NCBI GenBank assembly: GCA_013239625.1
Contig: MU053810.1
Location: 6,358,122 to 6,422,121 of the forward strand
Direction: 5' to 3'
DNA length: 64,000 nucleotides
Source: Lama guanicoe
Lineage: Eukaryota
A model generated the notes under the pieces. The model was not told the DNA's origin. It made no database searches and was given only the letters and a program-made list of their open reading frames with translations. Made by a program: the position numbers and the translations under genes. Positions 6,901 through 9,900 of the stretch are shown here, piece by piece (position 1 is the stretch's first letter; each line of letters opens with the position of its first letter).

Positions 6901-9900
6901 TCTCACAGAAAGACTTTTCCTGGCCTCACCGAATCAGAAGCGTCCTTCAGCGCCTGTCTCTGCCTCTAGCTCTTCCATGAAGCTTCCACTGACTGTCCAA
7001 GGCTTTCCTCCTCATGTGACCACCAATGGTACTTACAGGCTGTACAGATTACTTGGAATGTGTTATGGGCTAAACTGTGTCCCCTCAAAATTCATACGTT
7101 GAAGTCCTCACCCCCAGTTCCTCAGAATAAGACTGCATTTGGAGAAAGCGTCTTTTAAGTGAGGTTACTATGGTGGACCCTAATTCAACGTGATTGACGT
7201 CCCCAAAAGAAGAGAAGATGAGGACACAGACAGGCACTGAAAGAAGACCATATAAAGGCAGAAGGAGCAGACAGCACCTCTAAGCCAAGCAGAGGCCTCA
7301 GAAGAAGGCGACGTTACCAACACATTGATCTTGGACATCTAACATCCAGAATTGTGAGGAAATAACGTTTCTGTTGTTTGTTGGTTTTTTTTTTGTTTTG
7401 GGGGGAGGTAATTAGGTTTATTTATTTACTGATTTATTTTAGTGGAGGGACTGTGGATTGAACCCAGGACCTCATGCATGCTAAGCAGGCACCCTACTAC
7501 TGAGCTATACCCTCCCCCATTTCTGTTGTTTAATCCCAAGTCTGTGAAATTTTGTTACGGCAGCCTTAGCAAAATAATACAACACTGAATCTTACACTTC
7601 TTGCCACTTACTAATTTTACCTGTGACTTTTTTTTAAAATAGTGGGACCATATGTTTTTGGATGGTGGACACTATGCCTTCCATTGTGTTGACCTCCTGC
7701 CTTTCCACAGACGACTGCATGTGGCAAGTGTTTGGAGATGCTAAGAGGTTTGACTGATTCCACTTCAGCTTAGAGACATGCTGTTAAGTGAAGAGTAGGT
7801 ACTCAATATAGTTTTCTTAAGTACATCACTATTTGACACCAGAAATAAAAATAAATTCTGATGTTTTAAAGATAAATGTACATGAAAGAATCAACAGACC
7901 TCTTGAAAGAAAATGCAGATGACTTCGTGAACAATCTGGGGGTACAAATGTCTTAACTAAAACTCAGAAGTCATAAAAAGACAGCAAATGACTGCAAAAT
8001 ACAGACCAACAGAAAACTGGGCAAAAGCTATAAATAGGAAGTTCAAGATGAGAAAATCCAAAAAGCCAATAAGCATGGAAGGCAAATGAGCTTGCTAGCA
8101 GACAAGGAAATAGGAACTAAAATAACAGTGAAATATTATTTTACTCCAGATACTTGAGCAAAGATTAAAAAGAGGGATAACACTGCTGGACAGGATGTCA
8201 GAAAACGTGTACTCAAACAAATTGTTACGGAAAGGAATGAAAAGAAAACATCAATTGTTAGGGCCTTTTAGGAACACAGTCTATCAAAATCTCAAATACC
8301 TTTCAACTCAATAACCCCACCCCAGGGGGCTTAGCCCATAAAAAGAAAGTCAGTATACAAGAACATTTTCTGAGATGTTTACTGTAACAATTTTCATAGT
8401 GGCAAAAAGTTGAAACAAGGTGAATATCTACAATAGGGGGAAGTTTATAGAAATTATTGTGATCTTCATATGGAATACTATACAGCTATTAAAAAGGATG
8501 AACTGTAACTACACCTGCTGATGTACAGGAATTCCTGCTAAGGGAGTGAGGGAGAGAAGCAAGATGTGTAAGTGTTTATATTATGATCCTATTTTATAAA
8601 ACAATGACAAAAATCTCTGTATCTGTGTGTGTGCATAAGGACATTTATGCATATGTACAAAAGATATAACAGAACCCAAGTTTTGTAAGAGTTTCCTTGG
8701 TGGAGACAGTAATCTGGGTTGGAGAGGGGGAATGAGGGAAAGCAACGGGGAAAAAAGAGAAAATGAAAAAATATTGCATTAAAAGGAATCTTGGAATGTA
8801 TGTACGGCTTCATTTATGTAAAATTATGCCAGGCGGGCCGCCGCGATCCCGGGGATGTGGGGAGGGCGGCTGCGGGCAGACGCTGCGCTGCGCTGCGCCG
8901 CGCGGCCGGCACCATGCGCGGCCCCTGCTCTGCGCGCTGGCGGGGCTCGCCCTGCTCCGCGCCGCGGGCGCCTTCGCCGCTGCCGAACCCTTCATCCCCT
9001 CCCGCGGAGACCCAGCTCGGGCCACAGGGTGTGACAGGCACATGGCCATCCACAGCCGGTTAGACGTCCTGGAGGAGACGGTGGAGAAGACGGTGGAGCA
9101 CCTGGAGGCAGAAGTAAAAGGCCTGCTGGGTCAGCTGGAGGAGCTGGCCTGGAACTTGCCCCCAGGACCCTTCAGCCCGATGCCTGACCTCCTAGGAGAT
9201 GGAGACGGTCGCTTTTGAGCACCAGCCGCTGGCAGTGATACAGCAACTCTATTCTCAGAACAGATCCTTGCGTTTTGGCCTGCCTTCCTCAGCTTTGTGC
9301 AAAATAAAAACTCCTCCTTTGGTCCCCTCTGTGTCTGCTGATAGTGACCCTTGCAGCCACAACCCCTTCTCCATCTGCTGTCGTGCCCTGAGGCTCACAC
9401 CCCCTACAGGCTGACTTCGGAGCCTCAGTGGGTCTGGGCTTCCACCCTCCTCATTTATAGGGCCGGACAGGGCAGAAGTAGGTTCACAGAGGAGAGGCAG
9501 CTGAGGCCCAGAATAGTAAGGCGACACAGTGGAAGGGCCCTTGAGTAGCCTTGTTAATCAATGTGTGGCCCTGAGTGAAGAGCAGGGGCGTCACCTGGGA
9601 GCTTACCAACAATGCACAACTAGGGGCCCTACCTCCTGAATCAGAATCTACATTTTTAATAAGATCCCCAGGGGATTTATGTGCACATTAAATTTTTAAA
9701 AAGTATTTCTATAGAGGTAAAATTCACCTGACATAAACTTCAAAATGTTAACCATTTAAAATGGTGCAAATTCTGTGGCTTTACAGTGTTGTGCAGTCAT
9801 CACCACTTCTAACTGCAGATATTTTCATCCCCCCAAAAAGAAACCCTGTACCTACTGAGCAGTCCCTTCCCATTCCTGCTCCCACCATCCCTTAGAAACC

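Follow-up and report, generated by a model that had tools for sequence, protein, structure and literature searches.

Introduction

PLAC9 (PF15205) is a secreted protein that has been proposed as a glucose-regulating adipokine, 'Placin' (PMC13555536), and the SignalP peptide of human PLAC9 is given as residues 1-23 (PMC6239258). A 64,000-nucleotide stretch of the Lama guanicoe genome (hereafter, the window) carries an intronless copy of the gene whose PLAC9 frame runs uninterrupted over 8763-9218, giving a product of 151 aa, or of 130 aa from the in-frame ATG at 8826, which has A at -3. An earlier sequence-only reading reported this frame correctly and proposed that the ATG at 8826, lying in the target-site duplication (TSD) of the copy itself, had rescued it after the native start codon was lost. 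The candidates that it named were a new retrogene, an intact retrogene with a sequencing error, and a recently dead pseudogene. In this study, we asked whether the open frame marks a second PLAC9 gene or a pseudogene whose frame is open by chance.

Structure of the copy and its host intron

A search of the source genome located the parent PLAC9 at one locus with four exons (contig C3072). In the window, the four exons are joined without introns at 8919..9218 on the plus strand, all three parent introns being precisely absent, and the former exon junctions lie at 8979/8980, 9077/9078, and 9207/9208. By Pfam match and parent alignment, this segment comprises PLAC9 codons 2-100 and the stop codon. 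Its frame matches PF15205 with 160 bits (cut-off 27) over 74/74 positions, and 96 of 99 residues are identical to the parent of the same genome. The parent alignment starts at 8829 with 85 nt of copied GC-rich 5' UTR (8829..8913, plus strand) and continues through a copied long 3' UTR (9219..9964, plus strand; proximal AATAAA at 9303) with 57 differences in 745 aligned bases. The distal part of the 3' UTR is an old dispersed repeat, which we take to be LINE-1-derived. Downstream is an A-rich stretch at 9965..9999 (plus strand), a decayed poly(A) tail that the parent does not template, since the parent locus continues differently. Retrocopies of this kind are made by L1. The copied mRNA extends about 650 nt beyond the proximal AATAAA (9303-9308) and ends in the old repeat; hence, a long 3' UTR isoform of the parent PLAC9 exists or once existed.

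A putative TSD flanks the copy at both junctions, with its 5' copy at 8820..8829 and its 3' copy at 10000..10009 (both plus strand). The ATG at 8826-8828 does lie inside this flanking repeat, as had been claimed, but the repeat is imperfect (7/8 or 8/10 bases equal). Other repeat copies could not be used to link the flanks on either side of the insertion: the right flank is unique, and the left-flank matches end at about 8645. The left flank holds an old dispersed repeat at about 8290-8645 (64-74% identity), and position 8763 is covered by just one weak repeat match (E 0.002), so that the earlier placement of the ATG at 8763 in an old L1 is tentative. Outgroup DNA was sought in metagenome contigs, with 446 pattern matches and 0 confirmed.

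The host is MYO3A. In a tblastn search of the window with the orca and cattle proteins, the copy fell in the minus-strand intron 3980..21826, between exons 21827-21979 and 3866-3979, and the retrocopy (plus strand) is antisense to MYO3A. One MYO3A exon in the window is 93.5% identical to that of C. ferus, which, like the parent PLAC9 protein, suggests a South American camelid. The tblastn search recovered no MYO3A residues beyond about 1524 in the 64-kb window. Three stretches at 2692-3682 (minus strand) match the C. ferus hypothetical protein P0127 and not orca or cattle MYO3A; they are probably ab initio exons of that model. Elsewhere in the window, 41501-43540 and 43646-45685 form a tandem repeat of at least 2,040 nt with 99.7% identity and two MYO3A exons, and a gap of 15 N (43541-43555) lies where the two units meet. 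The most likely explanation of this repeat is an assembly overlap artefact, not a real exon duplication.

The native start codon and the upstream ATGs

The copy has two extra bases after the native ATG (8914..8918, plus strand) that are absent from the parent; by parent alignment, their exact place is ambiguous within a GC repeat. As the sequence-only reading had noted, the native ATG opens a frameshifted peptide of 49 codons (8914..9063, plus strand) that stops at 9061-9063 and has no Pfam match. The parent frame is therefore disabled by a +2 shift directly after its start codon, a shift also found in the Camelus models described below.

The PLAC9 frame has three upstream ATGs, at 8763..8765 (151 aa), 8796..8798, and 8826, all on the plus strand and all with a purine at -3; the second had been overlooked. 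Also overlooked were the out-of-frame ATGs at 8800, 8816, and 8855. The flank ATG at 8800..8802 (plus strand) has T at -3, a weak context, and opens an 87-aa ORF in the window; the 137-aa Camelus models start there. The ATG at 8855..8857 (plus strand) lies in the copied UTR, is missing from the parent by alignment, and opens the third frame. The 85-nt copied UTR is free of stops in every frame. No stop lies between the old start and the ATGs at 8763, 8796, and 8826 in the PLAC9 frame, or those at 8800 and 8855, one in each of the remaining frames. With an upstream ATG in every frame and a stop-free leader, any net indel still gives an open frame. With flanks drawn at random, each flank-dependent frame has a probability of 0.19-0.26 of acquiring a stop-free upstream ATG; for the frame with the UTR ATG the value is 1.0. 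An ATG occurs by chance fairly often, since 22% of TSD-sized stretches at endonuclease-like sites contain an ATG. The open frame at the copy is thus most likely no more than chance, its base composition being sufficient to explain it, and the TSD ATG loses the special status it had been given, because every frame here has an upstream ATG.

Possible starts beyond the broken ATG, a CTG at 8937 in G/G context and an ATG at 9042, have no support. The TATAAA at 8595 was not counted as a promoter element, this motif being common in AT-rich DNA. Exact look-up of the window-frame proteins (151, 130, 49, and 87 aa) returned 0/4 in the protein collection.

The same insertion in Camelus

A homology search revealed RefSeq 'PLAC9-like' models of 137 aa in C. 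dromedarius, C. ferus, and C. bactrianus, named 'placenta-specific protein 9-like' (XP_032329440.1, XP_064335295.1, and XP_045380724.1). All statements on Camelus are read from these predicted proteins, not from Camelus DNA or reads. The RefSeq genes start in flank DNA and may be annotation artefacts. Residues 1-33 of the models agree with the window frame from the ATG at 8800 at 31/33 (P0002) and 30/33 (P0123) positions, and nine flank codons are among these residues; hence, the Camelus models represent the same insertion. Absent introns, the A-tail remnant, and this shared site bear out the earlier identification of a PLAC9 retrocopy of camelid origin. The remaining 104 residues agree with the PLAC9 frame from 8904 at 100/104 and 99/104 positions. 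A South American camelid model of the copy was absent among the 120 of 166 matches listed and among the 11 members of five camelid clusters, which in both cases shows absent annotation only.

Between the two matching parts of the models, 5 nt of the window are skipped. These nucleotides, at about 8899..8903 (plus strand), appear to be missing in Camelus, as inferred from protein, and they decide which upstream ATG is in frame. Because its leader is 5 nt shorter, Camelus has the ATG at 8800 in register with PLAC9 and the TSD ATG out of register, so rescue by the latter is not a conserved feature. Near the start, the leader of the window is 4 nt longer than that of its genome's parent, and that of Camelus is 1 nt shorter than the same parent. 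If the parent length is ancestral, the ATG at 8855 would have been in frame in the ancestor.

The Camelus models lack the native Met, and their junction has the two-residue spacing of the window, with Gly in place of Arg; their names carry no 'LOW QUALITY' tag. An assembly or sequencing error is very unlikely when three Camelus models share the same shifted junction, and the earlier suggestion of an error in the GCGCG run can be largely set aside. One shared slip followed by a substitution would account for the +2 more simply than two independent slips, and the frameshift probably predates the split between Camelus and the present lineage. The divergence of Old and New World camels is placed at about 16.3 My ago (PMC12127551). 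If the +2 is a single event that precedes the Camelus split, 'recently dead' has the wrong timing. Retrogenes as defined in PMC4772013 keep the parent ORF undisrupted across orthologues; here, the codon-2 frameshift occurs in the window and in the three Camelus models, and start and leader differ between them.

Divergence and selection

Parent and copy differ at 7 synonymous changes in about 86 sites and at 3 nonsynonymous changes in about 211 sites (Fisher p 0.008). The pairwise comparison takes in the parent branch, which is constrained, and for that reason we discarded it as a test of the copy. Polarised with outgroup proteins, one amino-acid change falls on the parent and two fall on the copy. 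The present lineage has therefore accumulated 2 amino-acid changes since leaving the parent, versus 6.0-8.4 expected (P 0.01-0.06), and this P becomes lower still when CpG hypermutability is simulated. The expectation uses 38-50% of the UTR divergence on the copy side. These shares come from 18 differences in the 3' UTR polarised by 36 repeat copies (5 on the copy, 8 on the parent, 5 ambiguous); because 33/36 repeat copies are closer to the query copy and bias the polarisation towards it, shares of 5/13 and 1/2 were both used. Since the Camelus split, the lineage shows 0 amino-acid changes (P(0) 0.005-0.04, assuming 3-5% neutral divergence; the branch is one of three and was chosen after the fact). 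The branch is not slow in general: in a MYO3A exon 15 kb away, 9 of 20 changes fall on it versus 5 on the other, with 6 ambiguous. The amino-acid deficit on this lineage is the strongest result against the pseudogene reading.

Overall, the evidence on selection is mixed. The Camelus tips have 5-6 amino-acid changes versus 6.0-8.4 expected (P 0.16-0.61), which fits neutral decay. The Camelus copy replaces a proline that is kept in 116/116 non-camelid PLAC9 rows (rows include isoforms), and five of the six copy-specific changes give residues present in 0-1 PLAC9 rows. Judged from these protein alignments, the loss of an invariant Pro and the gain of rare residues are the behaviour of a dead copy. 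A branch estimate of dN/dS, with Camelus and the outgroups entering as protein sequence, gave omega values of 0.16-0.41 on this lineage, with p of 0.58, 0.15, 0.06, and 0.02 by assignment of the synonymous changes; one of the four possible assignments is significant. Differences between copy orthologues (3/99) do not deviate significantly from local controls (3/35, p 0.18; 20/307, p 0.32). Under neutrality, 0.8 indels are expected per lineage per 300 nt, and one frameshift is present; the neutral chance of no stop in the PLAC9 frame is 0.69-0.83. Copies with intact-looking frames are, moreover, the ones that a reader flags in the first place.

Codon 30 (9003-9005) differs in the parent: the camelid parent has His from two adjacent CpG-type changes, and the retrocopy keeps the ancestral Arg, as in ruminants and whales.

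CpG content and expression

In the exon-1-derived 5' part of the copy, 23/26 parental CpGs are kept and 2 are deaminated; the CpG observed/expected ratio is 1.07, and no other stretch of the window is as dense in CpG. The island is about 150-250 nt long and includes an inherited GC box at 8864. The P of such retention is 0.25, 0.03, and 0.009 for assumed decay of 15, 25, and 30%, respectively. The retained CpGs hint at an island that may be unmethylated, and a transcript starting inside it would miss the TSD ATG. Another CpG-rich patch, less marked than the first, lies at 58851-59100 (15 CpG in 200 nt, observed/expected 0.78), upstream of the mapped MYO3A exons.

Of 99 words sampled across 8700-9700, a share of 0.77-0.88 occurs in fourteen DNA rows from three organisms; these shares show that the locus is present and are too coarse to resolve a 2-nt or 4-nt indel. 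Among the RNA runs listed, few in number and drawn from an incomplete index, the best six contain 0.08-0.12 of the 99 locus words, about the share that parent transcripts could give.

Properties of the predicted product

The hydrophobic core of the predicted product starts at residue 34 and is identical to that of the parent (KD 2.75 over 11 residues, 1.96 over 19). The cleavage region is also unchanged, and the n-region is basic (6 K/R, 1 D/E). With a short core interrupted by Arg and a cleavage region like that of the parent, the product, if translated, would more likely carry a long cleavable signal peptide than a signal anchor. Signal peptides of 40 or more residues, of a two-domain type with an export signal in the C-domain, are described in PMC2447879.

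Discussion

We consider the locus an old camelid processed pseudogene whose open-looking frame is explained by base composition, with a probability of roughly 0.75. A near full-length PLAC9 mRNA would have been reverse-transcribed, presumably by the LINE-1 machinery, and the cDNA inserted antisense in a MYO3A intron in a camelid ancestor. The native ATG then lost its frame through a slip of 2 nt in the GC repeat that follows the start codon, probably earlier than the Camelus split, and later indels in the GC-rich leader would have changed the frame separately in each lineage. Given a stop-free leader and an ATG in every frame, each lineage would be left with a long open frame and a different N-terminus, and the copy probably encodes no protein. 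The intronless structure, the parent, the host intron, the ATGs in three frames, and the different Camelus start are directly observed.

The alternative with most to recommend it, still an improbable one, is a retrogene translated in this lineage, with a flank ATG (8763, 8796, or 8826) adding an extension of 31-52 residues. The whole leader would then act as a long signal peptide and be cut off, leaving a mature PLAC9 with three residues unlike the parent's; a leader that stays uncleaved as a type II anchor is a less probable variant. Such a gene would explain why so few amino-acid changes are found on this lineage, and it agrees with a parental hydrophobic core preceded by a basic n-region, with the purines at -3 of the three ATGs, with the retained CpG island, and with the long signal peptides known from other proteins (PMC2447879). 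With about the same small probability, the leader could be indifferent to frame: an upstream ATG is available in all frames and the leader is discarded, so that indels would merely swap one junk leader for another. The copy would keep secreting near-parental PLAC9 with N-termini unrelated between llamas and camels, which would account for the few changes seen here despite a dead start codon. Against translation, however, Camelus does not share the start or the leader frame, branch dN/dS is significant in just one of four assignments, the orthologue differences are not significantly unlike those of the local controls, and the locus was found in none of the RNA runs listed. The transcript would also have to begin in the AT-rich flank upstream of the CpG island.

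Slightly less probable again is a non-coding but active locus, in which the copied exon-1 CpG island is unmethylated and serves as an intragenic promoter, so that either the pseudogene would be transcribed or a minus-strand RNA would be made from the last MYO3A exons. The CpG density and retention and the GC box at 8864 speak for it, as does the precedent of the PPP1R26P1 retrocopy inside RB1 (PMC4537222). However, the significance of CpG retention hinges on the assumed decay rate, the island is short, and a parent-derived promoter is reported for about 3% of expressed retrocopies (PMC4772013). An intact retrogene, with the two extra bases an assembly error and the native ATG in frame, is far less probable than either: an insertion within a GC dinucleotide repeat and an otherwise intact frame would suit it, but the untagged Camelus models with the same spacing and no native Met do not.

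As a pseudogene, the copy matters little. It serves as a dated camelid insertion marker and as an example of how a GC-rich UTR and an AT-rich flank create 'rescued' frames by chance. Were the frame-indifferent leader real, a retrogene for a secreted protein would have survived the loss of its start codon because its leader is cleaved away, and camelids would have an additional gene supplying what has been proposed as a metabolic hormone. Searches of titles and abstracts for a PLAC9 retrocopy, or for PLAC9 and camel, gave nothing on this locus, which supplementary retrocopy catalogues could list; for TSD-derived start codons, none was evident among the papers listed.

Relative to its parent, the copy shares 96/99 residues and an unchanged hydrophobic signal core. 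Unlike the parent, it is intronless, lies at another locus, has its native start out of frame, and carries its signal core at least 33 residues from any usable ATG. The Camelus 'PLAC9-like' models, which are predictions, share with it the insertion site, the shifted native start, and two derived C-terminal residues, but use another frame (137 aa) and have 3-4 further amino-acid changes. Retroposed glycolytic-enzyme sequences with upstream start codons (PMC2881024) and type II/III retrocopies that use flanking or UTR sequence (PMC2584115) are described, and frequent, examples of ORFs extended from an upstream ATG into N-termini unrelated to the parent. The PLAC9 copy differs from that class, as those reports present it, in that a frameshift disables the native start and makes an upstream ATG obligatory, and in that the leader frame varies by lineage. 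PPP1R26P1 in RB1 intron 2 is likewise an intronic retrocopy with CpG-rich sequence; promoter activity and imprinting are shown for it in PMC4537222, whereas the PLAC9 copy is likened to it by sequence.
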